This document shows positions 1-37,454 of a stretch of DNA of 38,635 bases, in pieces. Positions within the stretch are counted from its first letter, which is position 1; every line of letters starts with the position of its first letter. Source of the stretch: Phoronis australis (Eukaryota > Animalia > Phoronida); the NCBI GenBank assembly GCA_002633005.1, contig NMRA01000423.1, positions 337,231 to 375,865 on the forward strand, given 5' to 3'. Below the pieces are notes generated by a model, which ran no database searches, was not told the origin of the DNA, and worked only from the letters and a program-made list of their open reading frames with translations. A program made the position numbers and the translations under genes.

Positions 1-1913
1 ACCTTCTCAAAAATTTTTGACTTAAAGTGCTTTAAAATCACACCCACAGTATAACGCCATAGGATTATCCCTTAGCGCAAGCAGTGTCGATGTGGCAACT
101 GAATGGAGTGTTCGAAAAACAGGATTGCAGGAGAATTTGTTTAAACTGGGAACAAATGAAAACATTAACGACCTCCTCAGAGGCATCTCTCTACGCGATA
201 CTTCTAAACTTATAGGAACATAATTTGCCGAAAAGTATCCGGCATATGAAGTACCTATGGTATGATCATCGTCTCTACTGGATCAGCAGTATTGTCTAAG
301 GCCTAGGCAGCCAAGGGGCTGAACAAGCTAAAAAACAACTGGTGATAATGCTGAGTCACACATGGAAAACACCAAGATGTATTTTTAAAAAACACGTACC
401 TGTTTTTGAAAGCTATACTTCTTTCTCTTTCTTGAAATGTGGCCCATAATGTACTTTTCCTGCTAACAAATGATGCACTCATGTTTCAGAATGTTCCTAT
501 CTTGTTCAGGTTAATTGGGTGTTTCAGATGTTGGAAGTATAATTGATTTTCTTGGGAAATCTTGGATAACATCTGTATCACCATAGACTATAGTACATCT
601 ATGGTATCACTTTCAGCAACTTCAGCTTTAGTACTGCTGTTGGTGCCTTGAAACGTTGCTATGCCGTTCTATGTCCTTTCAATTTTTTGGTCTGACACTT
701 GGTCTAGTCTACAGCACTCAGCAGTATACTGTGTAGGCTACCAGGACATGTCTTCTGCACAAACGTTTGTGACACCTCTTCTTCTTTTTGATCTACTGAT
801 CTGCAGAGTTCCACAGTCAATCAGCTTTCGTCAGGAAGCTTTCCTAAACTTCTTTAGGCTCTGACATCACAATTTTGTGCTGTTTGATAAACCTTGAATT
901 ATACAGGCATCATATTCCATGGGAGCAGCCATATTGAAGTAACTAAGCACAACAATACAATCTGGCTCTCTGATTGGTCAATTCACTAGAAAAGCGCCAT
1001 CAAGTGGCAGGAATGTGCATCATATTTTGTGCAAAAAACACCTTTTTTAGAAAAATGTGCAAGTGTAGACGTGGGAACTTTTTGGAATTTGATTTATAGG
1101 TATATTATCTAGCCACATAGAAAAAACTAGGTTGCCCCCCAAAGTACTCACAAGGATGAACGCTATGAAATCTGGCCCACCGACTACTAGGCCAGGCCAC
1201 TGCCTCGACGTCTGGAGACTCAGAACATCAGAACAATTCGTCTGGATTTTCGGCAAAATGTGAACCGCGTGATTGATTGACCATCAGTCTTATTAGAAGA
1301 ATGGTTTTGGTAAAATGTGTTTCTTCATGTGCTTAATACGTAGAGAAGGGTTTATTCTTTTCTAGGTTTTACCAGTTACCACTTTGTTCAATGTCATTGA
1401 CAAGTTGAATGTGTTCTCTCTGCATTTGTTCCTAACCAGTAAAACACCAAATAGGCCTACCAAAGATTGCCTAATTGATTATCCCTTAAACTACTTCATA
1501 CTTCAGTTGTATTTTAATAATAGCCAATTCCAATATCATTTTAATCATGTATTGGTGTTCTGTCATAATTCTATTCCTGTTTGTCAATGACACACATTCG
1601 TTAGAAACTATTTTGGACCTCGGACAGAAGTGAAACTGGACGTATAACTTAGTTTTACCATGTTTTTCAATTGATGCACCCAGCAGGTATGGTCGATATA
1701 CTAAGACAACTAGGCGACCTTCAACACTGCTGTCCAATACATGGTATTTTGTGGCCAACAAAGGAAAATTTAATTAAATGTTTTACTCACATCAAATTAA
1801 CAGAGAATCTGTGTACAATTGTGATATTTCAACCTTTGCATGACAAGTCATTAAGATTCATAGTGAAGTTAGTGATTGTGAAGTTTGCTATAAATTGTTC
1901 ATTGTTTCTGCAG

Positions 1914-2009
1914 GACAGCGCAGCACTTCACATGGCAGCAGGGAAGGGCAGGACGGAGGTGGTGAGGGTGCTGGTGCAGGGTGGGGCCGACGTAGACGTG
2001 CAAAACAGG
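1914..2009 (+). CDS. Ankyrin-repeat exon A (first visible) of ANK-ZU5 gene: DSAALHMAAGKGRTEVVRVLVQGGADVDVQNR
   Basis: Acceptor tgtttctgcag ends at 1913 and donor gtaata starts at 2010. 96 nt, phase 0/0, GC-rich island, ankyrin consensus LHxAAxxGxxEVVxxLxxxGADV. Confidence 0.9.
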
Positions 2010-2573
2010 GTAATAGAAACTAATTGAGACGACATTAGAATTAAGACAATGTTATCTTTGTTACAAAAGCTGTAGACTATCTGAAGTTTAACTAAATGTT
2101 TTGTGTGTAAATACACTTTTCATATCTCATGATTTCAACAAATATTTTTCAATCTGTATTGTGTACATGCATCTTTAGAAACAGTGAAGTTTGAATTGTG
2201 TCAACAATATATTTGTCGACTGAACGTTGATACTTTTCTATTCTTAATGACAATCGTCCATTCAACATTACAACTTTATATTAAACACGAAGCCAGAAAT
2301 CGGTGAAGAAATACAACATGGCGGGATCGCTGTCAAGTTATGCAGGAACTCTGTAATTTCTTACAATCGACGTCTACAACATGCTCTGTTGTTACAGCAA
2401 TGTTTTAAAATCTGCAACACTTGGTTCTTGAAATCCTTACAAGTATTGTAGCGCCTTAGAGGGGTCAGTAATGTTTCATCTATGTCACCTTACAAGTTCA
2501 CTTTCCCCCTTGTATGTTAATTAGCTCTAAACGTTGATCGTCCATTCACACATCTCCATTATATATTACATAG

Positions 2574-2672
2574 TGGGGCATGACACCGCTGTACTGGGCA
2601 GCAGAGGGTGGTCATACAGACACAGTGGAGGTGATGTTGGCCAACAAGGCCAGTGTAGATGTACCTGATCAG
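2574..2672 (+). CDS. Ankyrin exon B: WGMTPLYWAAEGGHTDTVEVMLANKASVDVPDQ
   Basis: Acceptor tacatag, donor gtaagt, 99 nt = 33 codons, phase 0/0, GxTPL..AAxxGH motif. Confidence 0.93.
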
Positions 2673-3032
2673 GTAAGTAATGACACACAGGTTGTTTAGT
2701 TGAACTAGTTGTTAACAAACACGATGATTAAAACTGTTTACGAACACATTTTGTTGATATTTTTCACAATTTATTGTCCAAAAACAATGACAAGTTCAAT
2801 GTCGTCTGCTTTTCTTGGTGAAGAACCAAAGCTGCGTAGAGTTGTAACATGTTCTGTAACGTTTTAAAATCTGTAACACTTGATTCTTGAAATCGTTACA
2901 AGTATTGTAGCGTCTTAGAGGGGTCAGTAATGTTTCATTTATGTCACCTTACAAGTTCACTTTCCCCCGTGTATGTTAATTAGCTCTAAACGTTGATCGT
3001 CCATCCACACATCTCCATTATATATTACATAG

Positions 3033-3131
3033 GTGGGCTGGACACCTCTGCACACGGCAGCACTGCGTGGTTATACAGACACAGTGAAGGTGATGTTGGC
3101 CAACAAGGCCAGTGTAGATGTACGTGATGTG
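3033..3131 (+). CDS. Ankyrin exon C: VGWTPLHTAALRGYTDTVKVMLANKASVDVRDV (recent duplicate of exon B)
   Basis: Same acceptor and donor as exon B, 99 nt, TPLH motif, 459 bp downstream of B. Confidence 0.93.
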
Positions 3132-3321
3132 GTAAGTAATGACACACAGGTTGTTTAGTTGAACTAGTTGTTAACACAACGATGATGAACACACAAAATG
3201 TGACTTGGCTGAATCATTCAATGATTTAATTAATCGTGATTTATGATTTCATTTTAAACATTGACATTTTTGTTGCATTCCACCGCACGTGACGTGACGT
3301 GCACGCGACTTTAACTAATTA

Positions 3322-4141
3322 CAGTCAAGTGACCTAATTATCGGACGTTTTGGCACATTTTGCATTATATTTCATTGAAAACATTACGGATTGTTGTAAA
3401 TTCTTTGCTGAAATAAAGAATTACCATTATAGAATTGTTGTGATACTATATCTTGTCACCGAAAGCCACATTTATGTTCCGACTGATCTTCAAAAAACAC
3501 AACAACCAAACCTTCGGAGAACCTAAATATCGGAAACCATGTTTCTCCATACGCCACACCGCGGAAAACTGACTAACCACGTAATGGCCGCGGGCACCTT
3601 GTCGCAAAATTTCAGCTCGAGTGTTTTGACATATATGCTGCTAGAACCCAGGTCCATTCGCAACAAAATTATCCATGAAATGAAATCTGATGACGGCGCC
3701 AAGTCGTTTCAATGAATTATTGCAGACGAATAAAGCACGTGCAAACTCACTGCAGTTTTTAGTATCACTTAGGCTTCTTGATATGACACCCGCACGTGCG
3801 CGGTCGGGGTTTGACTTGAGTTTAAAAACAAACGAAAAAATGGAACAGTGACATATTGTCTGTTCAATGAGATGGTTTCATTGTGGAAAAAGATTTTATT
3901 TTCAACTTTTATAACCGATTTATGCGATCGTCCATTTTAGGCCGACTTGGGGGTCTAAATTGCACCCTCTCTCGGTGAAATCAAAACGAGGCAACGCTGT
4001 AAAAACGAGACGGTGCCGGACATTGAATGCATTACAACGGAACAAAAATTGGTGTCATTTAATTCTCAGATTATGCTTCAAGTAAGATTCTATGAAATGT
4101 CCGATATTTAGGTTCCGTCTGATAATTAGGTACCCTATGTG
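3322..4141. mobile_element. Non-autonomous DNA transposon (Tc1/mariner-like MITE)
   Basis: TA-flanked ends with inverted subterminal motif ACCTAATTATCGGAC (left) and GTCTGATAATTAGGT / TCCGATATTTAGGTT (right). The outermost TIR is imperfect. Confidence 0.5.
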
Positions 4142-4500
4142 TATAAACAGTTTTTAGTTCACCTAGACTTGCACACTGACTTGGTTCTTTACTTGCATTT
4201 CCACAGCACTCATTAAATGAATGTCGATCTGTTGTAATGTATGAGATCAAGTTGTTATATTTAAAACACTATTTTTTTCTACATCACATCAGAAAAACAG
4301 CTAAAAAATCCCACGCAAGTTATGTCTGAATTTAAATGTCAGGTTTTAGTCATATCCTGTTGAGTCACTCACTTCATTAGTATTGCAACTGATGTTGAAG
4401 TTTAAACTGGAAAAGTATAAAACTCGACGACTTTTTCACCCACTCACATCACTATGTATGATGCTGATCAACATTATCTATTTTTGTTCACTTACTGTAG

Positions 4501-4602
4501 GGGGGTGACACACCGCTGCACGTGGCATCTGAAGGTGGACATACAGAGGTAGTGAAACTACTGTGCAAGGAAAGCGGATGCGACGTCAATGCCGTCAACA
4601 AG
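4501..4602 (+). CDS. Ankyrin exon D: GGDTPLHVASEGGHTEVVKLLCKESGCDVNAVNK
   Basis: Acceptor cttactgtag, donor gtatca, 102 nt, phase 0/0, canonical ankyrin repeat. Confidence 0.93.
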
Positions 4603-7600
4603 GTATCACAAGAGTGTTGTACTTCTTGATTAGTTATAAATGTGTTTTAAATGGACTATGAGTTCGAGAATCTATTCATTCGTAATAAATATCTCGTCAA
4701 AAATGATCTGTCTCCTACTTACAAAGAATCTCTTCTTCACTCCATGTACCTCCCCAGATCACTCAGTGGATCAAAACAGCTTGTCTAATCGTATTAATTT
4801 GGCAGAAATAAAAAACAGACCGAACGCGCCATCAATGGTCGACAACAGCCACAGGTTCAGATTTCCTCGCTTCATTAATTATAACACATGCAGGTTTTTA
4901 ATCGGTTCACTACTAGGAATCAGATGCGCATTTAGGAAGGAAATCTTGGAAGGTTTTAGTCTTGCCTAGTTTAATATAACGATAATTTAGCAATCAATTT
5001 ATCCATGTGTTTTAACCCCATGGCTTAACTGTACATGTATTTCAACCCCACCACACAACCGTGTTTGTTCCTGCCAAGGGCGGATTTACTATTGTATGAT
5101 GTTGAAATCTAGGGCGTGACTGAGGCAAAGTCCCGGGCAGTCCGTCGAAAGCACAAGTCCTTTTATCACGGTGACAAGCCGAGCACTCTGAATCTAGTAA
5201 ACGAGCTGTAATCCACAATACATGTAAATCCAAAGTCTGTGTATACATGTGTACATGTGCAGGTGCTTTAAATTGTGTATACACTGAAGCTGGTTTGTTT
5301 ACGATTTTTGCGTGAATTTTGTTGTCGGAAACAGTACCGTGTTTTTTACCTGTCGTCTGCTTCACTTGTTTCAAAAATATGGCATCGTACTTCATCTCGT
5401 TGATCTCTCGTCTTTTTGTTATGTAAGCAAGTTTTATTGTTTAGCGATGAATACTGACTGCTTGTTATAAGTGACACGTTTTGTACCCTTATAATATCAA
5501 CACAATTATTTGAGTTTGCCAACTTCAAGCTGAAAGAATTCAAATTTATGTCGGGATATCTTGCAGAAAAATAGATTAATTACGAATGGGTGCCTGCTTC
5601 GCTAGAAAAATTGAAATTGACAAGTAAATCACTTAGATGGTAATTTTTATGTTTCAAAAGTTCAGGTTGATGCCATTATTTGTGTCTCGATGTTTAAACA
5701 AAAGATAACGGTATGTGAGTCTCGATGGTGTACATGTGTCGGTGAAGTTGACTTTACTGGTAAACATGGTAATTTATAAGATTATATATTTATTACCGAA
5801 GTTAAAAAAACGTGCCTTCAGCAGAACAAAAACGGTTATTTTTGTATCAATAAAACGAGAAACAAAATCAACGTTTGGAACCCTTGCTTTCCTAGAATTT
5901 TACACTTTCGCAAGGAAATAACAGATTATTTCGTTTGCTCAGTTGCAGTTGATTCAGCGAATTTAGTTGACCAAAGTGAATACGTTTTTGAATCATTTTT
6001 ATCATTTTGTTTTTTTTTCGGACATAGGCAGATGCATTTGTGTAAATGTTGTTTCATATCTTGAGCTTAACATCATTTTGCTTCACTCTTAACCTAAACA
6101 ATGCAAATGCCAAAAGTGAAAAATGTCACGGTAGGGCAGACAGTGTAAAAATACTTATAACTGGGTGCCAAACACACCACGGTGAGTCGTCTAGCGCTCG
6201 TGAGCTATCATTCAAACCAGTACTAAACAACCCACTGTACTTTTTCATCACATGTTCAAGCCATGTGGCCTCAGAATATTATAGATTATTGAGTAGAGAT
6301 AGTAAAAGTATTTGCCTATATCCGTGATTCATTAAAAAAATGAAAAGTTGGGGCTGGGAAATGATCCAATACATTCATTTGTTTTTCCGATAGAGTACAG
6401 TACAATTGCCAGTTATACTGATCGTGGCCAACTGTCGTATTTTTTGATTTTTCCAGCAGTGCACACCGTGAACATTTTCAGGTGTACTGACTCATGATAA
6501 ATCCGGCACATTGCAGGCTATAGCCCTCACTTTCAGTTCTGCTAAAGAAAATGGCACTCATATATTTCCAGTCGGCTAAACACAAAAGTTTCGAGCTGTT
6601 GTGGTCATTACAGCACTCGTAATGTTCGTTCGACTAGTTCGATTAAACGGGTCGTTTCTTCTGTTGCTACGATTATCTCACCCGTTTGCTGGCAGACCCA
6701 GATTTACCGCTTTATATCAAGTTTTCAATTTTCCTTATCTAATACTGACAACTATGCAGTAGCTGAACTAAATAACATTGACTACGTGTCATGAATATTG
6801 TTATTTTGTTAGTTTTCACAGCGCAGACTCCTTAGTGTCTCTTGTCTGCAGGCATCCTAAGTGTCGACGTTTTTAACAGTTCATGAAGAAATTCATTTCT
6901 CAGATTAATACGCATGCCAATAGTGCCTGTACTTTCCTCACGCGTTCAAATTCATTTTATTGAAACAAAACATTGAAATTCGGAAATATAAAAGTATAGC
7001 CTATATAATAGACGTAATTGACATTTGACATGGACTTTGACGTTCATTTATTATTCCTCCCATATTTACTCAATAACGGATTTTTACGGTACCTAACTTA
7101 GTTTGCACGTTGATGGCCACGCGTGTCCTTTTCAGTAAACCGTCATATAACGCTTCAATAAAGCATGATGCAGTTTCTGGATTCCAAGTTGGACATCCTT
7201 TATCAATCATTGTGGCGCACGGAAGAGAAATGACACGTCTTTCTTTTCTCCGGGACTGCAAAGTCCGAATTCTTCCAGTCAATGCATACAGTATGGACGG
7301 TTTAAGAAGTTAATTCCACACGCCGTGTATGTCCTACACGCTGTACGCAAAATGGTTGTGAGTCCTTACGTATCGGATATTTATTTGGTTGGAAACTCTA
7401 AATATTGGCATCTGAAAAAATCAACTTTCACGCAAACTACTCTCAGAAGGCAGCCAATGTTGTCCATAAAGTGAACGTTTGCAAATCTACATTTTGTGGA
7501 ATAATTGAATTAGACAGCCGACAAGAATTAAACGAAACAATTTCGGGTGCGAAAATGGACTTTTGCGGTATTACTTGGTAAACTTGTCGTGTAGATTTCT

Positions 7601-7750
7601 AGAAAATATTCTAAAAAATGTGCCAGTCACGAAACAAACAACGCTAATTTTATAAAGATGGTCGATTGCTAGAACGTGTGGAATATTTGAGCTTATTTGA
7701 AAGAAACGCACAGCAGTAGACGCGTGCATTTGAATCGTTTCATTTATTGT

Positions 7751-7853
7751 GATGGTGACACATCAGTTTACGTAGCGTCTGAGAATGGTTAACGAACGAA
7801 CAGTCTTGGAAGTAATTTTTGAAAAACGTGTCAATCTCGCAGTTGTCAAACAG
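7751..7853 (+). pseudogene. Ankyrin pseudo-exon DGDTSVYVASENG*RTVLEVIFEKRVNLAVVKQ
   Basis: 103 nt = 99 + a 4-nt slippage (aacgaacgaac); removing it gives 33 codons aligning to exons D/E. Stop at the His of GH, donor reads AT instead of GT, no AG acceptor. Confidence 0.7.
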
Positions 7854-10365
7854 ATAAAACAACAATGTAAATCACATTGTGTAGCAAGACAGAACTTTAA
7901 AAAATAATGAAAACACTTTCCGACTTAACTTTAATTTTCAAGTGTTGTGTTCTCCATCTCAGCGCTAAATATTCGTATACACGTTGGTGCTGATTGTCCA
8001 GGTTACCACAAATTTAGATCACGACATACATTTCCTGTATAATATATACTGACCTCAATTTCAACATAGCTATAATTCTGTACATAATCTGACTCCATTT
8101 CCGGAACATTTACTTCCATGTTCACTAAAGATATGTTAGTGATTGGTGGCAACATGTTATTGTTGGACCACATCTTATGTTCTCATAAGTATAAACAATA
8201 GTTTCAAATTGCCTTTATTATTCAGTGAAAAGCTACCAAAGTTCGTTGGATTACAAATTTATTTTTGTGAATGAATTATATCCTCATCGTTTCTTTCGGT
8301 TTGTATTTTGCAATTTTTTCTAGCTATCTTCACTGAAATTGTCACCAAAGTATCATTTACACAAACCTGTTCAGTTATTTAATGTTAGTTGTGCCATTCC
8401 GTTCAACTTTGCATACATTAGTCGTGCTTACATGTCGACGGGTGCCACCATTCGGAAATTTAGTGAAGCTTGCTTTAGAGCCGAGGCAATAACTGTTATG
8501 TCAGCAAAAGTTTCATTGATTTTCTTATACATGCACAGTGTACACAATTTCAATATTTGCCTTGTGAGCCAATATGTCTGTTTTATACATTTTTACCTTA
8601 TGTGCATGAAGTTGCGCAAAGGCGTGGATTTAAAAAAATTACAAAAGTATACAAAAATAATTATGCGCACATATACAACGGATTTCTACCTGTGCCTATA
8701 AGCAAGGCATAAGCATGCGTTTACAAGTATATGTGAAACAATTAAGAAGGAAATTTGCCTTAGTTTCTTTATTTCCTAAGCACGGAACGCACTTGTAATG
8801 TTGTGCAGTGGGTTACGATTTCCTTGGTTTACTCGAAAGAATTGAAGTGCATTACAAATGTGACAAGTAAAAATGACACGCATGTACAGCATATGCTTAA
8901 GCGGTCGAATAAATGTCAATGGCAATCTGACTATTCGTGTATTCGATCAGCAGCACAGATATTGATACCTGAAGGCTATTCCTACTGTGACAGAAGAATG
9001 GCCAAATTCAGTTGACATGATATAGACCGAGCATCTGCTTGAGCGAAATCAGTTTGCAAAATTTAAAAAAAGGACCAAATAGTTTACGTAAGCCACTGGT
9101 GTGCCAGCTGCAAATGACTAACGTTCGTTGAAAAATAACGATCACACCCAGTGGGCTCAAGGATTAGGACCATTCATTATGATTATTAAAAATGAATAAG
9201 ATTATATGGCGTATCAATTTTGTTTATTTTCTATACATGTACATTTTTCACCTGCCTTATCGAGAGTCACATCGCTCTTCTAACACCCAAAATAGCTTGA
9301 CAGCAACAAAGTATCCGTTAGATTTGATTAAAATGAATCAAATTGCTTCATTTTGTCCTCGATTAAATATCAGACAATTTCTTTCGCTAATCTGACTGAA
9401 AATAGACCACTTAGCTTTGATTTACATATGCAGTTCAACTAGGAATTGAAATGGTGGTAATCTGGACTGTGTTCAGCTTCACTAAAAACCTTGAAATTGA
9501 CAAATAAATCACCGAGATGGTATTTTTATGTTTCAAAAGTTTAGGTTGATGCCCTGTTTCGGTTGTTTAAACAAAAGATGGCGGTATGTGAGTCTCGATG
9601 GTGTTCATGTGTCGGCGAGGTTGCCTTTACTTGTAAACATGGCATTTATAGGATTATATATTTTTTACCCATGTTCAAAAAACATGACTTTAGTAGAGCC
9701 AAAACGGTTAATTTTAGAGCGATAAAACGAGAAACAAAACCAAGGAGTGGAATCCTCGCTTTCCTACATGTAGGTTTTTACAAACTAGCAAGGGAATAAC
9801 AGACTATTTCGTTTGCTCAGTTGCAGTTGATTCGGCGAATTTAGTTGGTCATGATGAATGCGCTTTTGATCATTTTTATCATTTTGTTTTTCTTTTAGAC
9901 TTAGGCGGATATATTTGAGTACAAGTTGTTAGACCTCTTGATGAGCTTAACAGTATCTTGCCTCACTCTTAACGTAAATAATGCAACTGACAAATCTGAT
10001 TATAAAATGTCACAATCATACAGGTACAGTAGGTTGCGCTGTGTAAAATACAAAGTAGGTGTCGAACACACCTTGGTACGTCGTCAAACACTCGTGAGCT
10101 ATCATTCATAAACTGAGTAAACAACGTGCTTTTGCATCACGTGTTCAGTCCATTCCACTTTAGTGTATTCTAGTTTTTAAGTAGTTGTAGTTATAGTGTA
10201 TGGTATATCGGTAAATAAATAATCCAATGCTTAGCTTTACCAATAGAGTACAATGCACACACAATCCTGCTCTTGACAAACTGTCGTATTTTTATTTTTC
10301 ACTAAGTCAAAGTGTTCCCGTTTTTAACTCACGGCAAAACTAGCATATCACGTAATATATCGCTC

Positions 10366-10598
10366 GAGGAGGCAGTGTGGCCTGGTTGATAAGTGCCTAC
10401 TTTCTTTACTCGAGGTCGTGGGTTCAAGTCCCACCAGGTCACACTGCTTAACCCTTGAGCCAGGTTTCTAGCTCCTCAGCTCGGTTTTAACCATATATTA
10501 ATAAAGCATAAACATATTTCAAGGTGATCAGTGCAATGGGTCCACATGCGAGGCCTGCGCCCGCCTGGTACTACGTGTATTAGACCGCCTGCAATTTT
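10366..10598 (+). mobile_element. tRNA-derived SINE with 13-bp target-site duplication
   Basis: A-box-like TGGCCTGGTTG and B box GGTTCAAGTCC (10421-10431). TSD TAATATATCGCTC at 10353-10365 and 10599-10611. Absent at the paralogous site near 6520. Confidence 0.85.
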
Positions 10599-13500
10599 TA
10601 ATATATCGCTCACTTTGCGTTCTATTAAAGAAAAAAAAAACAGGATGTATATTATTTTGTGACACTCTTAAGTTTGCAGTCGACTAAATTAAAAAATTCT
10701 GGCGCTTGGGCGTTACGACACTCGTAATCTTCGGTCGACAAAAACGCTGTAGGTTAGTTTCTTCTGTTGCTGCAATCATTTCACTCGTTCTTTTAGCAGA
10801 CCCAAATTTTCTGCTTGTTATCAAGTTGTCGCTTTTCTTTCTCTAACACTGACAACTATGACAGGAGGTGATCTAAGTAACATTGACTATTTGTCAGGAA
10901 CTAAGTTATATTTTTATTTTTCACAGTGCAGACTCCTTAGCAACATAACAATCGTAAAATAGGTGGCAGTGTCGCTTGTTTACAGTAATGCAAATTATCG
11001 CTGTTTTCATAATTTAATAAGAAGTTACCGGTAGTTCATTTTTATGATTACGCTTTTCAACAATGTCTTCGCTTTCCTCACCCGTCCAAAGTCATATTAT
11101 TGAAACATTATATTATGTAAATTTAGTGTGGAAGTTTTTAAAAAGTCATACAGGTATAGACTACACAAAAGACGTAACTGACATTCGTCTTTGAACTAAC
11201 AATCCTAGATTTAATCAAGAACTGATTTTCCAGTAACTCAGCAACAAAGAACATTGTGATGGGTGCGCTCTCTTCAGGCGCGAAATACCGACCATAGGTG
11301 TCCTTGGTTGAAACCGCTATATAACTCTTCAATAAATCACAGTCTGGATTCCCAAGTTGCACATTCTGTACCAATCTGAAGTAAAACTGAGGTTTGATGT
11401 TACCGCTCAATTTGGCCCACGGTAAAGGAATTGTACGTCTTTCTTATTCTCCGCCACCAAACGCTTCCGATTTGTGCATACAGTATTGACGTTTTATGAA
11501 GTCAAACACGAAATTGTCCGCAACTGCATTCCACTCATTGTGTATGTTCAATAAAATTCAGCCTACTGTAGGTAAAATGATTGTGACTCGTAATGTGTCG
11601 AGTATATATTTGGTTAGAAACTCCAAAGATTGGTATTTGACACTCCCTCAGTTCGCACGCAAATCTGTTGCAGAACGCCTGCAGAACATCGTGCAATCTT
11701 GTCCATACCGATTTTAAAACAAACACTTTCAAATCTGCAAGCTCTGCCAATTTCACTGAGTCGGCCGTCGTGAACAGGAGTAAAAGGTTTCGTGAGTAAA
11801 AATGGACTTTTCAAGTACAAATTGGTAAACGTTGACGTGTTGCTTTAAATGCAAAATTCTGAAGATATACCAATCACGATGCAAGAACACTCAGTTTAAG
11901 AGTTGGTCGATTGCTAGTGGGATGTTTGAGCGATTTTTTATACAAACGCATAACTGAAGATGTTCTTGGGCCTGAAAAATAAGGAAAGAATAAGAGACGC
12001 TGTGACATGAAATTTAAAGAAGTTGCCTACTTAATGCTAATTGAAATGGATTATCAGGGTGTATTGTACAGTCATGTTGTTCTTAAATTGTGTATTGAGC
12101 TAGTCCTTGAATTAAAATTAAAATTAAAACACGGCTTGATTATTGGATCTTGTAAAATGTGAAAACGCATATCGGTTTCAAGTAGCGGAAGACCACAGCG
12201 GTGAAAAGAAGATGGTCGGCGACATGAACTATTCCGTTGGTGTGGCACTTGTCGTTGAAAAGCTTGACTATTACAAAGTTATTGTCAAACTGGTGCTCGA
12301 TAAAATCAAAATCAGTCGAAATGGTTTAATTTTTAATGTGTCGATAACGTACCTGATTAATGTGTTTGATTTTCCTCTGATATCTATCTCTTTTCAGTTC
12401 TGACTGAAAGTGTCTCTTATCTCAGTTCGGCTAAAGTAAACTCTCCGCTACTCCCGGGGGAAATGATTCAAATGAATAATAACTCGATCGTTTTGGTTTT
12501 GTTTAATTATTTGTCATTTCTTCATACAATTTGAAGTTTTTGCGTCACGCAATTCCACAACCATGTTCAGCTGTAGGAACATGGCTCCTTTCCTTTTTGT
12601 TTTGTTAAGTTTGAAAAACTAATTGGCAAACATTGACGTTTATTCAATTTTGAAAATGTACCAACCCTGAAAAAATCACTTAATTTAAGGCGGATGATCC
12701 ATTGCTAGTGCTTGTGGAATATTTAAGCATTTTTCTTTGAACAAACGATGTACATTACATCCGTGCGGAACTAAACATATTATGCATTTTTAGAACACTA
12801 AAATGCAAATGACCCGTACTATGTAAGGCGATGGCGTTCATTTTGGCTTACCAATCAGGACAAAAACTATGTAATGGTTAAAATTATGAAATAATGCTTC
12901 TCTAAAGAACAATAAAATGGCAAGCAAACTGTGCAGCGAATTCCAAAAATGGCAAACACTGAACACTGTCTGGGTACGGAATAACTGTGCTGTATGGTGT
13001 TGTGCGATGTGTTCACACGTATCTTGTTTTCCTTAACTTAATCATGATTATGTTAATATTAATAATACTATTGTCACGCGCATTCTGTCACACGTCTTTG
13101 TGCTACGTTTGTTATGGCATTATAAGCAAAGTAAGGAACTTTTACAGAGCACTTGAAAATAGTAATGGCCCATCCTATACAGCCGTGGCCTTAAGTTCGA
13201 GTAAATGGCCATACAGCACAATGAGTTCATGGCCTTGTATTTCGGGGATTACGGTACATGTATGTTTACGGAAACAATGACTATCCGTGCAATTTGCAGA
13301 CATTAGACATACTCTGTGAAGTGGACCAATAGGCTGAATAGTAATGGAGTTTTATCTGATGTATTGAATATGTCCTTAATTAGAAACTAAACGCTCTGCT
13401 AAGTAAATACACGTTGATCAGAAAATTATTACTGAAGATGTAAGCAGGATAAATGACAATCGTTTCACTTTGTTTCATGGTAATTAACCGTATTATTATG

Positions 13501-13793
13501 TTTGATTTTCCTTGTGGGTTTATTTTTTCACATCTTCACTGAAGGTGTTGTTTTTGTCGCTCTGTTGACCAAGCGGAAAATCGCTTTGTTCAATAAGTTC
13601 GTGGTAAGTGATGAATTATAACTAGGTTGTTTTTATTTCGGTTTAAGACATGTCAATGTTCGTTTACAATTTGCCTGAAACTGCTAAAGTATTGCCACTT
13701 CCCCAACCATGTCCTGTTACATTGTATACATGTAGATAAGAATCTCGCTTTGTACTCGTATTTGTTTATTTAAGCCTGTTTTATTTGATGTAG

Positions 13794-13892
13794 AAAGGCA
13801 ACACACCGCTGCACCGTGCTTGTAAATTTGGCCATCTGGATGTCGTGAAACTCCTCGTGGAAGAGGATGGTGACGTCACAGTTGTCAACAAG
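13794..13892 (+). CDS. Ankyrin exon E: KGNTPLHRACKFGHLDVVKLLVEEDGDVTVVNK
   Basis: Acceptor ttatttgatgtag, donor gtaaaa, 99 nt, phase 0/0, canonical ankyrin repeat. Confidence 0.92.
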
Positions 13893-13933
13893 GTAAAATA
13901 TGAATATAAATGGAACTGTGTGGTAAGACACAC

Positions 13934-14263
13934 TTTTACCTGAATAGTGAACATGTCATCTAACTTTGATATAACTTTACCTGAATAGTGAACATTTCAT
14001 CTAACTTTGTTATAACTTTACCTGAATATGAACATCTCATCTAACTTTGCTATAACTTTACCTGAATAATGAACATGTCATCTAACTTTGTTATAACTTT
14101 ACCTGAATAGTGAACATGTCTTCTGATTTTGCTATAACTTTACCTGAATATGAACATGTCATCTAACTTTGCTATAACTTTACCTGAATAGTGAACATGT
14201 CATCTAACTTTGCTATAACTTTTAAATGAATAGTGAGCATGTCATCTCACTTTGCTATAACTT
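13934..14263. repeat. 41-bp minisatellite, about 8 copies (actttacctgaatagtgaacatgtcatctaactttgctata)
   Basis: Direct tandem units starting about 40 nt after the exon E donor. Confidence 0.95.
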
Positions 14264-14928
14264 TTCGATGTGGTGTTATCTTCCCGTTAGTAAAGTATCA
14301 GGTTTAGTTTTATTAGTTGTACCATGTAGTTGCAAAAACTTCTAAGGCTGTAAGCATGTATTTCATCATTTCAATGCTCATGTTTAGTTTTACACGGTGC
14401 CACGAAATATGTTGGTTCACGTCAGTTTCATTCGGACTGTTAATTTTGTGCTATGCATTGTTTTTAATGTTTCTTCGCACAAGCGACATCATGCTAATTT
14501 GTCTGATTCATTAAAAACCTTAAAATTGACCGAAACTCTCTAAAATAGTAACCTTTAAGTCACCAAATGCCTGCTGTTAATTGTGCCTCGTTGTTCAAAC
14601 TAAGCATAGTGTTGTGTGCAAGTCTCGATGGTCTACTTGTGTCGGTGAAGTTGGGTTTACTTTTAAATATGATAAACAGTGTATTTCTTGTGAAACAGTC
14701 TTGATCAGAAGCATAACTTGGGAGTGTCGGGAAAAGAAATACATCCATCATTGTCGCGGAAATGTTGATAGAGATTGGTGCCCTTTATCTTGACTGATTC
14801 TCCTAGTTGTCTGTGACTGTAATTTATGAGCGATGTGTAAATTGCAAATCAAAATACTGAGTTCACTCCGTCACTGAGTTTGCCTGGCAGTGTTCATTCG
14901 TGAGATCCCGTTATTGTTAATCATGCAG

Positions 14929-15010: not shown

Positions 15011-17377
15011 TACGCAAAAGCATGCGCACATACAAAGACATACAACTTAATTTACTGTATGAATGAAGCATAAGATAAGATCCTATATGAAAATACTGGA
15101 GTAAGATTTTTCCCTGATGATCTTTTTAGTTTGATAAATGTTACGCCACTCTTTATTAAAACGACTCTTTAGAGCAATTCAAACTTGTTGAAGAGGCTTT
15201 TTAAACTTCTCAAAGGGTTGCGACACTGTACTGCACGAAGCAGCTTGCAGTCTGGCGAATTATCGGTCATTTGAAAAGTGTGGTGCTGTCCCTGTTGTCA
15301 ATAATATAAAATGAAAAGTCGTCGGTTCTTGGCCTCAAAATTGAAAATTCAACTATGGTTGCTTCATCCTTTGATTCTGATGTTCTCTTCAAATGAGCTA
15401 TTGTCCCTTTTACCGATAAATTTCCACGACTGACCCCCACGGAAAACATGTACTGACTATGTCAACAGACATTTCAGTGGATTTTAAGGGAGCGTGATTA
15501 TATGTTAACCTACTCAAATTTCTTAAGATTTGACTGTATTGCTGAAAATCCTATCTTCCCAATGTAGCTGCACATGTTTCAGCTTGTCGTTAAATCAAAA
15601 ACTTCAGCAACTTGACAAAAAGTTAAACTTAGCCGAGCTTGCCACTGACGCCCGGCCTGCACTCAACAAAATACCCCTGTCAACCCCTGATTGTCTGTGA
15701 TATAAGTACGAACCACACTCTTTATTTTGCTCATTAATAAGACACTGTACCTGCCCAAGTACCATGAATGCAGCCATTCATCTTTATCGTTCCGCTTGCT
15801 GCGTGTGCGCGTATTGCGGCCATGCGCATTGATTGAGTTTATGCCATGCAAAATGGCAAACATTGACGTACATTTAGTCAAATGAAAAGTACAGACACTT
15901 GATGAAAAAATAAAATAAAAACATCCCGTTTACGAAAGGCGCCTGGACCAACAAGTGAATTGAAACACATGCGTCTATACTGTACTTGCAAAGCATTTGA
16001 ATAGAATTATTTCATTTGGACAACAGCATCATTCGGCGTGTACAGGTGTTTTGGCCTAAATACGCGCACATGTATGAACGGGAATTGTTAAGTTAGGTGT
16101 AAAGTGTGAAGCGGAGAAACTGCGCTAACAGGGCGTAAGACTGCCATTGCGGGTGTTGAATGTTGGTTCCACACCGAGGTTGATCTCAGAAAAACCTTTC
16201 TCACCTAAATTTTAAAAGTTAAGGTTCCCCAAAACCTGAACTTTGTGAACTTCGATTTCCTACAACTTTTACTTACAAACTGCTAGACAAACTTGAACTC
16301 ATAGTTAGATGAATTGCCGAAGAGGTCCTTGCTGAAAAATGCTGACTTCAACGAAAACCTTGCAACTAAACGTGTAGAAAAATGGAGAATTGTAGTTTCA
16401 TTTAATTTGATAACTGTGAGTGAATTGAAGCAACATGGGAATGATTCGTTGCTATTGATTTGTAGGTTTGTACGTCTGAAAATATCGACAAAAGTCTACG
16501 ATTCACGAATGACTATTTCTAATTACTTACAAACTGGAGACTCATTTGCAAACCTGAAACATTTTTAACTTGCATACACGTCATTATAATCCTTACGTCG
16601 TCCGCATATAGCGCAAACCAACAAAACGCGCAGGACCCACTAAGCCCCTGTGCCAGACACGCAAGCGTTTTGTCAACTTGCATGAAACATTGCGAATTGG
16701 TGCTTGGACTTAAACTAATCGTGCATTTCTCCAAAGTTGGTGATTTCTAGTTCCCAATTGCGGTCCAGATGATAGCACACTGGAGCTAGACTGTAATGGC
16801 ACTGCAATCTTTTCCACCTCGTAATTATAGTCACTGCTTTGTACTATCTAATAAATCAAGTCTCTCGTACTTCATGCGTAGGGGACTTGGGCACTGACAA
16901 ATGGTGCGTCGAGTTATGTTGCAGTCAAAACGCTGACGTCATGTTGGTCTTCCCAAATTTCTTCTCAACCGTGTTATGTCCAAAAGTGGCCACAGCCTTA
17001 CAAAATCCTGCTTGGCTGTACTTGGCATCCAGTTTTCATTTCTCTTCGAACACAAATATTTATTTACTTTGAAAATTTGAATAAAACGTGAAGTATGCAA
17101 GAAAGGTAATGAGATGCTTAGAAATATCACCTGAAACCTCTGGTTCGATTGGTACTTTAAATCAATGGAAAGAGTGGATTTTGAAGTTGACCTTCTAGGT
17201 TTTTAAAATTCTTTAATCATTTTTTAAAATAAAATTTAAAAATTTCTTACCTCATGTCTTGCACTCTGGCCCACGGGGTCTAATCTCTAAGTACAGATGC
17301 ACTCAAATCTTTCACCCTGTTTATCTGGCTAAAAACGAAGTTCAAGTTGGTGGGCATTATTGGCGTGAAATCGCATC

Positions 17378-17594
17378 TTATGAGATGACCAACTCGAGCT
17401 GAAGGCAATGAGTACACTAGCGCTACTTTCGAATGCGCTACTTATGGGATGACAAACTCGAGTTGAAGGCAATGAGTACACTTGTACTACTTTCGAGTGC
17501 ACAACTTATGGTATGGTCAACTAGAGTGGAAGGCGATGAGTACACTGTCTTGCGCTACTTTAGAATGCACAATTTACGGTATGGTCAACTCCAG
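17378..17594. repeat. Minisatellite of about 63-68 bp, about 3.3 copies (second instance about 21248-21468)
   Basis: Repeated caactcgagtggaaggcgatgagtacact...ctactt units. Confidence 0.85.
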
Positions 17595-18689
17595 AGACTG
17601 ATGATTTAGATGTCATTGTTGTTGACAGAAATGGAATCATATCGCAGAAAGGAATATTATGAAATTCTTATTAGAGTGGAAGGCATAATTTCATTGAAAA
17701 CATCGATTCTGACTGCGGTGTTAATAGAACTCTCTCAGAACTTTCTCACCAGTAAATTACTGAATATTTCTGAGTCATGCCATAACAAAATATTGTTATC
17801 GCACCATTGCAATCCAATGAAAGAGCCACTGAAGTGTCCTCTTAAATTCCGAAGTTGAACCGGCGTGAAACCAATCTACCATATTAAAAACAACTTTGAA
17901 ATGGTGGGTCAAATGTCACACCGTTCAGTGGTTTAAGGCCCACGTACCAAAATCCAGAAGACGAAAAGTCTGTAAAATCACTAATTGAGAAATGTCAGAG
18001 AAAATGGTCTCATTGCCAGATGGGCTGTGAACACAAAGTCTGAATAAGGTCCGACTTTTGTAAAATGATTTGCTCGTTTTCCGACTATTTTTAATAATGA
18101 GGATTGTGGTACAACGTTTGTCATATCTTGAGTCTGAAAATATGTCATGTTGTATTTTTCATTTTCGACACTTCCGTTAATACTGCTGTCCTAATAATTT
18201 TTTTCTTTTATTGGCAATTCCATTTTTAATCCATTACAATGTACTTCTTAAGATTATTTCATAACAAGTAAGCTCCCTTTGTTTCGTGTAACATCAACCA
18301 AGCCTACATATCATGTTGGAACAAAATGGACTTTTAGACTGTGGGTGGTCCTGTTATTAGGAATTACCTCTGTGAAAGAAAACAATCCCAACATTCAATA
18401 CTAATCACGTGATCAAAATGTGGATTAGTGATATCACATATTGTTTTGTAACTCAGAAAAAAATAGTCTAGTCTGAGGTTACCACATAAAATTACTGTGG
18501 AACACCAAAAATATCAACAGTCCATGAATGACTTATTACGTTGCTGGAAAAGGTGTTTGTGAGCGTATTATCATGATGGAATAACTAACGTGAAACTTAC
18601 TTTGAGTTTTGCTCGTGGGCCGTAAAACGAGTGGCGCTGTCGTCTGAAATAACGAGCGGAAATCAACGATTGATCGATCTTCCAAACCA

Positions 18690-18880
18690 CCTGCTGGATT
18701 GCAAAACCCAGTGACCGGTGCTCCAACTTGTGGGACTCCTATACTAGATGGCTGCACTCAAGAGCGGGTTGGCCTGACCTAAAATGAATTGGCTGGTGCT
18801 CAAATACACATCAGGGTCTACACGTTCAAAGCCAGTCTCTGGAGCGGTCAGGCCGTCGTGTTTGATCTCCAACCCACTGG
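18690..18880 (-). mobile_element. Possible decayed LINE (CR1/L2-type) RT C-terminal fragment
   Basis: Minus strand reads V-R-P..L-E-C...V-*-S-P with frameshifts, resembling LVRPxLEYxxxVWxP. Confidence 0.3.
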
Positions 18881-18884
18881 TTAT

Positions 18885-19190
18885 ACCAGTGTACACTGTA
18901 TGTTCTACACGCTCCTTCGTGTAACCGAGCATAACCACGTGTACACTGTTTGTTCTACAGCTCTCTTTCGTGTAACCCAGCATCACAAGTGTACACTATG
19001 TTCTACAGCACTCCTTGGTGTAACCCAGCATCTCCAGTGTACACTATGTTCTACAACACTCCTTCGTGTAACCCAGCATCACCAGTGTACACTGTGCGTT
19101 CTACAACAGTCTTTCGTGTAACTCAGCATCCCCAGGGTACACTGTATCTACTACAGCACTTCTTGGTGTAACCTAACATCACCGCGTGTA
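18885..19190. repeat. Minisatellite of about 48-50 bp, about 6 copies (second instance about 22765-23075)
   Basis: Repeated gtgtacactgtatgttctacagcactccttcgtgtaacccagcatcacca units. Confidence 0.9.
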
Positions 19191-22100
19191 TGCTTAGATG
19201 GCAACGATTCTGCTTCCTCTCAAGTCTCTAATGAGCACAACAAAAGTGTTGATGAAAATAAGCAACAGCCAGTTTTGGAAGAATCGGTATTTGGCATAAA
19301 CTATTGACATTAATAACTCAATATGTAGTGGTCATTTTAGCACTACATCGGCGGTTGACGAGGTATTTAAAAGTCAATTTCTGCTGCCAATAATTTCAGA
19401 AAGAGCAGAAAGTAGCAGTAGGTTCATGTCTACATANGCTGCACATGTTTCAGCTTGTCGTTAAATCAAAAACTTCTGCAACTTGACAAAAAGTTAAACT
19501 TAGCCGAGCTTGCCACTGACGCCCGGCCTGCACTCAACAAAATACCCCTGTCAACCCCTGATTGTCTGTGATATAAGTACGAACCACACTCTTTATTTTG
19601 CTCATTAATAAGACACTGTACCTGCCCAAGTACCATGAATGCAGCCATTCATCTTTATCGTTCCGCTTGCTGCGTGTGCGCGTATTGGGGCCAGGCGCAT
19701 TGATTGTGTTTATGCGATGCAAAATGGCAAACATTGACGCACATTTAGTCAAATGAAAAATAGTGAAACTTGATGAAAAAAATAAAATAAAAACATCCCG
19801 TTTATGAAAGACACCTGGACCAACAAGTGAATTGAAACACATGCGTCTACACTGTACGTGCAAAGCATTTGAACAGAATTATTTCATTTGGACAATAGCA
19901 TCATTCGGCGTGTACAGGTGTTTTGGCCTGTTTTTGGACGCGCACCTATATGAACGGCAATCGTTAAGTTAGGTGTAAAGTGTGAAGCTGGGAAACTGCG
20001 CTAACAGGGCGTAAGACTGCCATTGCGGGTGTTGAATGTTGGTTCCACACTGAGGTTGATCTCAGAAAAACCTTTCTCACCTAAATTTTAAAAGTTAAGG
20101 GTCCCCAAAACCGGAACTTTGTGAACTTCGATTTCCTACAACTTTTACTTACAAACTGCTAGACAAACTTGAACTCATACTTAGATGGATTGCCGAAGAG
20201 GTCCTTGCTGAAAAATGCTGACTTCAACGAAAACCTTACAACTAAACGTGCAGAAAAATGGTGGATTGTAGTTTCATTTAATTTGATAACTGTGTGTGAA
20301 TTGAAGCAACATGGGAATGATTCGTTGCTATTGATTTGTAGGTTTGTACGTGTGAAAATATCGACAAAAGTCTACGATTCACGAATGACTATTTCTAATT
20401 ACTTACAAATTGGAGACTCATTTGCAAACCTGAAACATTTTTAACTTGCTTACACGTCATTATAATCCTTACGTCGTCCGCATATAGCGCAAACCAACAA
20501 AACGCGCAGGACCCACTAACCCCCTGTGCCAGACACGCAAGCGTTTTGTCAACTTGCATGAAACATTGCGAATTGGTGCTTGGACTTAAACTAATCGTGC
20601 ATTTCTCCAAATTTGGTGATTTCTAGTTCCCAATTGCGGTCCAGATGATAGTACACTGGAGCTAGACTGTAATGGCACTGCAATCTTTTCCACCTCGTAA
20701 TTATAGTCACTGCTTTGTACTATCTAACAAATCAAGTCTCTTGTACTTCATACTTGGGCACTGACAAATGGTGCGTCGATTTATGTTGCAGTCAAAACGC
20801 TGACGGCATGATGGTCTTCCCCAAATTTCTTCTCAACCGTGTTATGTCCAAAAGTGGCCACAGGGCCTTACAAAATCCTGCTTGGCAGTATTTGGCATCC
20901 AGTTTTCATTTCACTTCGAACACAAATATTTATTTACTTTGAAAATTTGAATAAAACGTGAAGTATGCAAGAAAGGTAATGAGATGCTTAGAAATATCAC
21001 CTGAAACCTCTGGTTCGCTTGGTACTTTAAATCAATGGAAACAGTGGATTTTGAAGTTGATCTTCTAGGTTTTTGAAGTTCTTTAATCATTTTTTAAAAT
21101 AAAATTTAAAAAATTCTTACCTCATGTCTTGCACTCAGGCCCACGGGGTCTAATCTCTAAGTACAGATGCACTCAAATCATTCACCCTGTTTATCTGGCT
21201 AAAAACGAAGTTCAAGTTGGTGGGCATTATTGGCGTGAAATCGCATCTTATGAGATGACCAACTCGAGTTGAAGGCAATGAGTACACTTGTACTACTTTC
21301 GAGTGCACAACTTATGGTATGGTCAACTCGAGTGGAAGGCGATGAGTACACTGTCTTGCGCTACTTTAGAATGCACAACTTACGGTATGGTCAACTCGAG
21401 TGGAAGGCGATGAGTACACTGTCTTGCACTACTTGAGAATCCACAATTTAAGGTATGGTCAACTCCAGAGACTGATGATTTAGATGTCATTGTTGTTGAC
21501 AGAAATAGTATCATATCGCAGAAAGGAATATTATGAAATTCTTATTAGAGTGGAAGGCATATTTCGTTGAAAACATCGATTCTGACTGCGGTGTTAATAC
21601 AACTCTCTCAGAACTCTCTCACCAGTAAATTGCCGAATATTTCTGAGTCATGCCATAACACAATATTGTTATCGCACCATTGCAATCCAATGAAAGAGCC
21701 ACTGAAGTGTCCTCTTAAATTCCGATGTTGAACCGGCGTGAACCAATCTATCATTATATATTAAAAACAACTTGGAAATGGTGGGTCAAATGTCACACCG
21801 TTCAGTGGTTTAAGGCGCACCTACCAAAATCCAGAACACGAAGAGTCTGTAAAATCACTAATTGAAAAATTTCAGAGAAAATGGTCTCATTGCCAGATGG
21901 GCTGTGAACACAAAGTCTGAATAAGGTCCGACTTTTGTATAATGATTTGCTTGTTTTCCCACTGTTTTTAATAATGACGATTGTAGTACAACGTTTGTCC
22001 TATCTTGCGTCAGAAAATATGTCATGTTGTATTTTTCATTTTCGACACTTCCTTTCATACTGCGGTCCTAATGATTTTTTCTTTTATTGGCAATTCCATT

Positions 22101-23386: not shown

Positions 23387-23470
23387 GCTGGAGAAACCGC
23401 TTACGACGTTTGTGGACGTGGACGCAGGGTCAAGGAATCAACTGCAGAAAACATCAAGGAATTCCTTAAG
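23387..23470 (+). CDS. Ankyrin C-terminal capping exon F: AGETAYDVCGRGRRVKESTAENIKEFLK
   Basis: Acceptor ttttgttgcag, donor gtagca, 84 nt, phase 0/0. GxTAxD...IxxxL is typical of a last ankyrin repeat. Confidence 0.85.
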
Positions 23471-24704: not shown

Positions 24705-24747
24705 GAAAAGCTGTTCGGAAGAGCAGAATCTGCTGCACCGCCAACTT
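24705..24747 (+). CDS. Linker micro-exon G: EKLFGRAESAAPPT plus 1 nt (phase 0 to 1)
   Basis: Acceptor ttttgtttcgtttcag, donor gtaaga. Supplies the phase-1 junction needed to read exon H in frame. Confidence 0.75.
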
Positions 24748-25439: not shown

Positions 25440-25858
25440 TAGGACCACCCTTTATCGTACGAACACTATGACGATCCTGTATCGTCAGATCAGTAGGTCC
25501 ACCCTTTGTCGTAAGAACACTAAGACGACCCTGTATTGTGAGATCAGTAGGACCACCCTTTATCGTGAGAACACTATGACGACCCTGTATTGTCAGATCA
25601 GTAGGACCACCCACTATCGCCATATTAGTAGGATCACCCTGTATCGTGAGATCAGTAGGACCACCCACTATCGTCAGATTAGTAGCATCACCCTGTATCG
25701 TCAGATCAGTAGGACCACCCTGTATCGTGAGATCAGTAGGACGACCCTGTATAGTGAGATCAGTAGAAACCACCCTGTATCTTGAGATCAGTGGGACCAG
25801 CCTGTATCTTGAGATCAGTAGAACCACCCTGTATCACTAGAGCAGTAGGTCCACCCTG
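25440..25858. repeat. 27-bp minisatellite, about 15 copies (gtaggaccaccctgtatcgtgagatca)
   Basis: Direct tandem units; they explain the 9-aa repeat ORFs on both strands. Confidence 0.95.
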
Positions 25859-26400: not shown

Positions 26401-27245
26401 CAACTATTGATGGAGCAGACGGTGGAGTTTTTGGGTACAAAGGGTTTCAACTCAAAGTACCACCAAATGCAATATCCGGGAACATAGAAATTGAGTTTGT
26501 AGATCAGTTGTTGTTAGCACGGGCAGTGCATTACGACACCCAAGGCAGAGCTAACCTCCATTCTCAGAGATTATGCGTGACCTGCACAGATGGAGATGTA
26601 ACATTCTCGGAGCCAGTCGAAGTGCGAGTGACTGTTGCAGCAATGTTCGGAAAAGTGGATGATCAACGACTAAAGAGCGAAGACTTTCGCATATTGCATG
26701 AAAAAGATGGTGAAGTGACTGACGTTACTGAAGATTGCAATGTCAGCATGGTATCGGAGGAAATAATCTTCTACTGTAAAACATGTTTAATGGTTAATAT
26801 TGCTTGGCTGGCAGATTTCACATCTCCTATCGCTACTGGCATGTTTACGACCATCAAACATATACTCGAAGCGTCATACATGTGCAGGATATGCCCGTAC
26901 ATAAAAAAAAGACAAGATGGAGGGTTGATAGTTAAACTATTTTGTCATGGCGTGGACGTGGAGTGTACTGATGACATTGAACACGAGTGTACAAGTTACA
27001 AAATGCGTTTGATAAATAGCGCCACGTTGTTGTTTGGAATTGTTTGCTGGAGCATTGCGGATGACAAAAAGAAACAAATTTCCTCTAAAGGGTTTAAACT
27101 TGAAAGGGATCATTGTGAAAGAGCATGTACAGTTTTTGAGATGATTGAAGCTAGAGTTCGTGCACTTATGGCTCACAAGGTTCGACTGTTTGTGAAAGAA
27201 TTAATCTACAAGGAAACCCTGATGGACAGGCCTGTGAAGGTTCAT
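26401..27245 (+). CDS. Large exon H encoding a ZU5-like domain followed by a UPA-like beta domain (STIDGADGGVFGYKGFQLKVPPNAI...FSEPVEV...IVKLFCH...PVKVH)
   Basis: Acceptor tctatccctatag ends at 26400. Frame is open from 26403 and continuous with ORF 26508-27266; donor gtaagt at 27246. The GG.....G..L.VP.NAI and F.EPV.V motifs match the ZU5 pattern from memory; no HMM was run. Confidence 0.85.
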
Positions 27246-27658
27246 GTAAGTACAGTACCTGTATAACTTGTTGTCTGTGTGTGTTGGACTGCATGTTGCA
27301 TGTGGTGTATTGGAGTATGAATCAGGTGTCCGCGTTTCTGTTACAGTGGCTGTAAGGGAATGAATTGACAATGACGTCAATGAAAAATAACCATTCGTCT
27401 AACGGTACTCTCCGATCCAAACTAAAGGTATTTGATCCGCCGGGACTCGTGCAGTTTGTCAATTCCCCGTTTTAATCCAACAATTCTATGTTGCATAAAA
27501 TACGAGTCGTTCATTGGAACAAATGCAATACAACACACGCTATACTTTCTTTGATGCTCACGATGAAGCGGACCCGCTGACGATCAAGAACCTGCGACGT
27601 TGTAGACCTCCCGTTTGCTATAACATTTTTGTCTAAAATACCTGACATTTCCGCCTGG

Positions 27659-37399: not shown

Positions 37400-37454
37400 G
37401 AAGAGTCGGCAAGCCGAACGCTTTCAGCTATTCTACTGAGGCCCACTGCAATAG
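37400..37454 (+). CDS. Second linker micro-exon I: EESASRTLSAILLRPTAI plus 1 nt (phase 0 to 1), paralogous to exon G
   Basis: Acceptor gtgcgttgaattttgtttcgtttcag is identical to that of exon G. Donor gtaagaag, downstream intron homologous to that of G, and phase compatible with the end of exon H. Confidence 0.65.

Follow-up and report, generated by a model that had tools for sequence, protein, structure and literature searches.

The repeats of Podospora HNWD (het-d and het-e) are constantly exchanged, receive a high supply of mutations and are under positive selection at four surface residues, according to the accessible part of PMC1805685. In fungal ANK repeats, namely those of Podospora Pa_3_8560, five selected positions are located on the inner helices and the hairpin (accessible text of PMC4986451). 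In the ROCO-LRR and NB-ARC-TPR genes of the brown alga Ectocarpus, as far as the accessible text of PMC3341825 describes them, every repeat occupies a phase-0 exon of its own, and the introns contain dead exons. DARPins bind via randomised positions on the concave surface (PMC8229355, accessible part), and ankyrin and UPA-ZU5 modules occur in invertebrate expansions (PMC8195603, accessible part). Outside subscription journals and supplements, our literature search, which took in the accessible part of PMC5100051, listed no description of animal ankyrin-ZU5 genes with hypervariable, shuffled exons.

In this study, we analysed a window, that is, a whole stretch of 38,635 nucleotides of Phoronis australis DNA, in which exons B and C (Table 1) each encode a single ankyrin repeat. 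With a probability of roughly 0.6, we think that B and C are members of a multi-copy, transcribed, phase-0 one-repeat ankyrin cassette that varies mainly at partner-binding codons, that such cassettes are shuffled by recombination in their flanks and are under diversifying selection, and that their products would be cytosolic recognition proteins, most likely for defence. The cassette is multi-copy, its spliced transcripts are expressed from the + strand, and its variation is concentrated at codons 1, 3, 8, 11, 12 and 33.

Table 1. Features of the predicted gene and of related elements in the window (positions counted from the first letter of the window).
Feature	Position	Strand	Description	Evidence
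Exon A	1914..2009	+	Ankyrin repeat, 32 aa, phase 0-0	Pfam Ank E=6.6e-8; AG/GT
Cassette B	2399..2734	+	About 175 nt of acceptor-side intron, exon B and about 60 nt of donor-side intron	91.7% identity to 2858-3192 across 336 nt
Exon B	2574..2672	+	Single ankyrin repeat, 99 nt, phase 0-0	Pfam Ank E=4.8e-8; AG/GT; RNA joints to C and to D
Cassette C	2858..3192	+	Tandem copy of cassette B	91.7% identity
Exon C	3033..3131	+	Single ankyrin repeat, 99 nt, phase 0-0; hypervariable codons 1, 3, 8, 11, 12, 33	Pfam Ank E=8.5e-9; AG/GT
Exon D	4501..4602	+	Ankyrin repeat, 34 aa, phase 0-0	Pfam Ank E=7.9e-12
Decayed D/E-like ankyrin exon within intron D-E	7737..7890	+	Frameshift, lost splice sites	nhmmer E=0.0057
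Exon E	13794..13892	+	Ankyrin repeat, 99 nt, phase 0-0	Pfam Ank E=7.4e-11; AG/GT; low + strand RNA depth in its bin
Exon F	23387..23470	+	Capping repeat at the C-terminal end (predicted), 84 nt, phase 0-0	AG/GT, open frame; cap role assigned by eye
Exon G	24705..24747	+	Predicted short linker, phase 0-1	AG/GT; phase matches exon H
Exon H	26401..27266	+	Divergent ZU5, then likely UPA-like part	Stop at 27266 or phase-0 donor after 27245
G'	37400..37454	+	Phase 0-1 exon resembling linker exon G, a candidate paralogue	AG/GT, open frame; similarity of flanks to those of G 68-72%

In the predicted gene, five ankyrin exons are followed by a cap exon, a linker exon and a divergent exon of putative ZU5(-UPA) type. 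The eight-exon model from A to H encodes 495 aa with one terminal stop, and has AG acceptors at 8/8 exons and GT donors after exons A-G. Exons A-E score 32.9-45.2 bits against Pfam Ank (PF00023), of which the cut-off is 21.1. The ankyrin exons A-F are 96, 99, 99, 102, 99 and 84 nt long, and every one is phase 0-0. Many ankyrin genes of animals have single-repeat exons of 99 nt, so that this exon layout is unremarkable by itself. The part of the gene 5' of exon A, including the start, was not found within the window. To judge from the fit of phase and strand only, the ankyrin exons may be joined to exon H in one gene. The phase-0 donor after 27245 leaves room for further exons in the gaps or past the end of the window, and could splice to G', whose region including flanks spans 36544-37684. 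G' could thus lead to a second ZU5-UPA module located past the end of the window, or could be part of a neighbouring family member with its earlier exons in the N gap. The decayed exon in intron D-E aligned to exon E with a score of 84, against a maximum of 52 in 300 shuffles; two other candidate decayed exons (12176-12329 and 15194-15317) were rejected as their scores were merely at the shuffle maximum.

Exon H matched Pfam ZU5 with E=0.14, which falls short of the cut-off. Its best matches in the Atlas (0.95-0.96) were eukaryotic ZU5/UPA/FIIND clusters, with a recognition value of 2016, less than the guide value of 2300, and UPA appears among the cluster names for a query consisting of the entire exon. 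The single-sequence AlphaFold model of exon H had a pLDDT of 37, too low for use. Two word-based searches and those of the representative protein library and the PDB gave no true homologue of exon H; two matches in the representative library were rejected because they were low-complexity repeats over 21-24 residues. A Pfam scan of 89 further + strand frames of the window found no death, CARD or NOD domain, and neither NACHT nor NB-ARC was found in seven exons or in these 89 frames, with the 5' end of the gene and the N gaps out of view. The splice-site scan together with the Pfam scan of the 89 frames gave no additional exon of a known family, and matches to LysM, DUF1719 and TNB (E 0.01-0.04, falling short of the cut-off) were taken as chance.

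Other features of the window are as follows. Two pairs of large tandem duplicates, 15567-19436 with 19438-23321 (3.8% substitutions) and 29335-31331 with 31925-33924 (2.5%), meet at a single N or flank an N gap, and probably represent the two alleles of one heterozygous animal, assembled next to each other. Duplicated intron blocks at 5596-7710 and 9476-11950, and also at 14577-14675, are 65-79% similar and are located downstream of exons D and E; they are earlier rounds of cassette duplication in multi-kb units, one of which carries a decayed exon. A short, strongly transcribed interspersed repeat with a tRNA-like head (10366-10596) is likely a SINE. Dispersed repeats at 1-1260 and 3260-4140 are transcribed on both strands, and there is an 822-nt RNA skip at 3319-4142. 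Minisatellites are found at 13932-14264 (41 nt units), 18885-19190 (48-50), 25439-25858 (27), 36264-36495 (31 nt units, palindromic) and 38321-38635 (31 nt units).

Exons B and C, offset by 459 nt, differ at 16 of 99 nt, 15 differences being non-synonymous and one, in codon 5, synonymous. The changed codons (B/C) are 1 (W/V), 3 (M/W), 7 (Y/H), 8 (W/T), 11 (E/L), 12 (G/R), 14 (H/Y), 19 (E/K), 31 (P/R) and 33 (Q/V). Of the 172 nt of intron upstream of B (2402-2573), 7 differ from those upstream of C, whereas the downstream introns match completely over their first 45 nt (2673-2717). An earlier note on this DNA had reported these exon counts, with ten amino acid changes at the same codons, and this intron similarity; the former were exact on our recount and the latter was confirmed. 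The spacers at 2250-2400, 2715-2860 and 3170-3330 have no detectable homology to one another. Differences are significantly more frequent in the exon than in the intron (16/99 vs 7/217, Fisher p=1.0e-4). dN is 0.233 and dS is 0.043; taken by itself, the exon shows no significant difference between non-synonymous and synonymous changes (p=0.11), whereas the comparison of non-synonymous changes with synonymous and intron sites together gives p=1.2e-5. Since dS equals the intron level, conservation is not limited to the introns, as it would be under the intron-limited gene conversion that the earlier note had named as a possible objection. Of the 15 non-synonymous changes, 12 are located in seven face codons (about 17 sites), namely the six DARPin codons described below and codon 8, to which the whole excess is confined; the remaining codons hold three in about 58 sites, with no excess over the neutral level (p=0.45).

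The positions 2, 3, 5, 13, 14 and 33 of the DARPin library are those which we take to be exon codons 33, 1, 3, 11, 12 and 31, respectively. All six are changed between B and C (p=1.9e-4, given 10 changed codons of 33), in agreement with the previous claim that the changes sit at DARPin-randomised sites. DARPin repeats in the PDB (6mol, 5le2 and others) align in register with exon codons 1-32 and vary at codons 3, 11, 12 and 31. The predicted protein shares with DARPins this register and the layout of an N-terminal repeat, internal repeats and a C-cap. Unlike DARPins, the present repeats are natural, their scaffold splits into several classes, and codon 8, in the first helix, is among the most variable in the family; this position is fixed in the classical DARPin library. 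Codon 33, the last of an exon, and codon 1 of the exon that follows are both sites of the beta-hairpin, which the splice junction thus divides, so that each new pairing of exons would create a new hairpin surface. By eye, the length of the hairpin also seems variable, some tandem junctions having +1 or -2 codons.

Variation in the whole family was measured on the 196-nt cassette at 2985-3180 in the DNA run X1 and in RNA runs including X7 and X9, with exon C as the reference; reads less than 80% alike or clipped at the exon ends drop out of the variant counts. In X1, 171 contigs were placed on the cassette and 34-35 covered single exon sites. At the intron site 3005, twenty X1 contigs averaged about 1,190-fold depth, compared with 20-83 for long contigs. 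This depth points to tens of cassette copies with common intron words, and gives no copy number; summed contig depth was not used as such. Among the best 40 of 68 variants, 35 are in the exon and five in 97 nt of intron, and a single one falls in the acceptor-side intron 2985-3032, which is near-invariant family-wide. The 35 exon variants comprise 32 non-synonymous and three synonymous ones relative to exon C, and one of the 32 is a stop unless paired with a neighbouring change. Among these 40 variants, codons 1, 3, 8, 11, 12 and 33 vary at both the first and second positions, codons 7, 14, 16, 17, 19, 20, 21 and 32 have fewer and mostly conservative variants, and codons 2, 4, 6, 9, 10, 13, 15, 18, 22-29 and 31 have none. 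The identity of codons 20-30 claimed previously thus holds between B and C, but not family-wide, where codons 20 (V/L) and 21 (M/L) vary conservatively.

Diversity per site, given as lower bounds from the 40 listed variants and alike in X7, X9 and X1, was 0.36-0.39 at the first and second positions of the six DARPin codons and 0.40-0.52 at codon 8. The remaining codons gave 0.05-0.06, fourfold framework sites 0.002-0.028 and the introns 0-0.023. Variability in these independent reads is therefore concentrated at the face codons, and is not uniform along the repeat, which the earlier note had considered as an outcome contrary to its reading. Because about 35 of the 39 changes in X1 are among those listed, the unlisted ones cannot overturn the DNA pattern; beyond the listed variants there are 19 for X7 and 11 for X9. 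In codons 1, 3, 8, 11, 12 and 33, positions 1-2 are polymorphic at 12/12 sites and third positions at 2/6 (p=0.005), and fourfold framework sites are polymorphic at 2/15. That the third positions of hypervariable codons are mostly fixed favours selection over a local mutator. The earlier note had proposed diversifying selection or targeted diversification; the former is supported and targeted mutagenesis is disfavoured.

The letters that distinguish B from C are mostly not peculiar to B, as 12 of the 16 are listed family variants in independent runs. Thus, the claim that exons diverge about four times faster than introns reflects a circulating pool of variants, not the rate since duplication: the excess in the exon is real, but is better read as shuffled standing variants. 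The intron distance between B and C (3.2%) is at the level of the large duplicates at the N junctions. On sequence comparison, B and C would have flanks of allelic age and binding-face states drawn from the circulating family pool. In two X5 contigs, the introns of the family diverge by about 6-8%, above the B/C level, and a second scaffold class after 3089 is visible in loose read ends. Three letters of the exon C cassette (3005, 3047 and 3055) are missing, or almost so, from each of the four runs, and could represent either private variants or errors in base calling; at 3055, three different non-reference letters were found in X1 contigs.

Expression was analysed in the stranded RNA runs X7-X9 (one study; about 18-19% of each was read) and in RNA-like contigs X5, mapped to 1-13930. 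The + strand RNA amounted to 24-99 reads in bins with exons A-D, compared with 0-7 in the first half of intron D-E. Joints among the 15 of 69 listed were those from A (at 2001) to a B/C-like exon, from B to C, from B to D, from C to D, from C back to a B/C-like exon and from D to D; no joint from D to E was among these 15. The D-to-D joint (4599 back to 4502) was found in 47 reads of X7 and 34 reads of X8, so that D-like exons are in tandem in transcripts. There are many different letters at RNA exon junctions, and an X5 contig links the donor side of one cassette to the acceptor side of another. Transcripts carry B/C-like and D-like cassettes in differing number and order, the short reads not separating paralogues, alleles and splice forms. 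The introns around B and C (2010-2573 and 2673-3032) also have heavy + strand RNA, for example 213 reads at 2895 in X9, which suggests frequent intron retention or slow splicing.

The earlier note had likened the locus to fungal NLR repeats and to Ectocarpus genes. It appears to work alike but belongs to neither group. Like the fungal NLR-like repeats, as the accessible parts of the sources describe them, the cassettes have a conserved scaffold, few putatively selected residues on the concave face and hairpin, probable repeat exchange and, among transcripts, variation in repeat number, and in the cassette family, too, variation and non-synonymous excess are located on the hairpin and the inner helix. 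Internal identity in the fungal group exceeds 85% over 100 aa, whereas B and C share 23 of 33 aa and the other repeats 38-61%. Unlike the fungal NLR-like proteins, this is an animal gene with one repeat per exon and introns carried along, its ankyrin exons are N-terminal to the ZU5-like module, and NACHT or NB-ARC was not seen in the exons and frames scanned. Probable exon shuffling and probable diversifying selection on exposed residues are shared with the Ectocarpus genes (PMC3341825, accessible part), as are one repeat per phase-0 exon, in exons A-F, and an inactivated repeat exon inside an intron of the repeat domain, at 7737-7890. Those genes combine LRR with ROC-COR or TPR with NB-ARC, whereas the repeats here are ankyrin and such domains were not found in the exons or the 89 frames; no inverted intronic exon, another Ectocarpus feature, was found in the window, and the organism is an animal, not a brown alga. 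The ZU5-UPA(-death domain) proteins (ankyrins, UNC5, PIDD1, DTHD1 and FIIND) are similar in the ZU5-like features of exon H and in its ZU5/UPA/FIIND Atlas neighbours, and in ankyrins the ankyrin repeats likewise precede the ZU5-like part. Unlike in these proteins, exon H is very divergent, five repeats plus a cap and one ZU5-like part are seen, and the frames scanned across the window gave no death domain. The genes of canonical ankyrins are conserved and have a low copy number.

Several other explanations have to be weighed against recognition for defence. The strongest of them, although we think it rather unlikely, retains the same shuffling and diversifying selection but with a driver other than pathogens: allorecognition, recognition of gametes or symbionts, conflict with selfish elements, or host partners that differ from one paralogue to another. 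The window is without a visible effector domain, and the fungal HNWD repeats under the same regime serve allorecognition (PMC1805685, accessible part). However, marine invertebrates have lineage-specific expansions, interpreted as defences against invaders, in which ankyrin and ZU5/UPA modules are found repeatedly (PMC8195603, accessible part), and fixed host partners would presumably not readily sustain many states per site. By analogy, defence would be the likeliest role of the products and the predicted proteins may act as recognition receptors. We consider it improbable that there is no positive selection at all, in which case the surface sites would be unconstrained and of old divergence, and the uniformity of introns, silent sites and scaffold would be due to conversion or to the demands of splicing. 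The surface positions at issue are indeed the least constrained in all ankyrin repeats, the test within the exon alone was not significant, and the 6-8% distance of family introns exceeds that between B and C. Neutral sites, however, cannot surpass the neutral rate unless conversion skips base by base, and to spare interleaved single codons from conversion tracts would need selection too; the contrast of 12/12 polymorphic first and second positions with few third positions and fourfold framework sites also argues against it.

A dedicated diversifying process that builds a repertoire within the individual, such as templated copying like that of lamprey VLR, somatic rearrangement, a targeted mutator or Dscam-like splicing, would account for the many junction strings and exon orders in RNA and for the two substitutions each in 5 of the 10 changed B/C codons, and the near-invariant acceptor-side intron could guide recombination. 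We regard it as somewhat less probable still. Genomic contigs of X1 carry, at high depth, the variant letters that are found in RNA, so that the diversity is largely genomic and in many copies, no single substitution type dominates (transitions are 3/16 in the exon vs 5/7 in the intron), and the third codon positions are spared. To a similarly low degree, one may entertain a genomic bank of single-repeat ankyrin cassettes from which every individual would build combinatorial DARPin-like receptors, either by splicing of cassettes or by templated recombination at the invariant intron flanks, and in which a new binding hairpin would arise at each new exon junction. It is very improbable that B and C are an assembly artefact, that is, two alleles set side by side or base errors. 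The large duplicates at N junctions do differ at the same level as the B/C introns, but there is no gap between B and C, RNA reads contain joints from B to C and from C to a C-like exon, an X5 contig links two cassettes, and the shared B letters recur in independent runs. Tandem cassettes are thus present in RNA and contigs, which answers the doubt about mis-assembly raised previously.

The preferred reading, a shuffled cassette family of recognition proteins, implies the following mechanism. Recombination between near-identical flanks or scaffolds, by unequal crossing-over or conversion, would likely duplicate, delete and homogenise in-frame cassettes. Diversifying selection would likely maintain many versions of the residues at the face codons. 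The predicted products are binders, putatively cytosolic, with a variable ankyrin surface and a ZU5-type module.

The residues varied in nature are almost exactly those that engineers randomise in DARPins, and the family may provide a natural frequency table for binder design, including an extra position in the first helix. The near-invariant intron flank is a single PCR or capture handle for the whole repertoire of an individual, so that ligand specificity, and whether the diversity is germline or somatic, can be put to a direct test. The family bears on how invertebrates, without antibodies, recognise many fast-changing targets. On the reading given here, this animal family would unite on the ankyrin scaffold two regimes that have been described separately, the concerted evolution with selected faces of fungal NLR and the one-repeat exon shuffling of brown algae.
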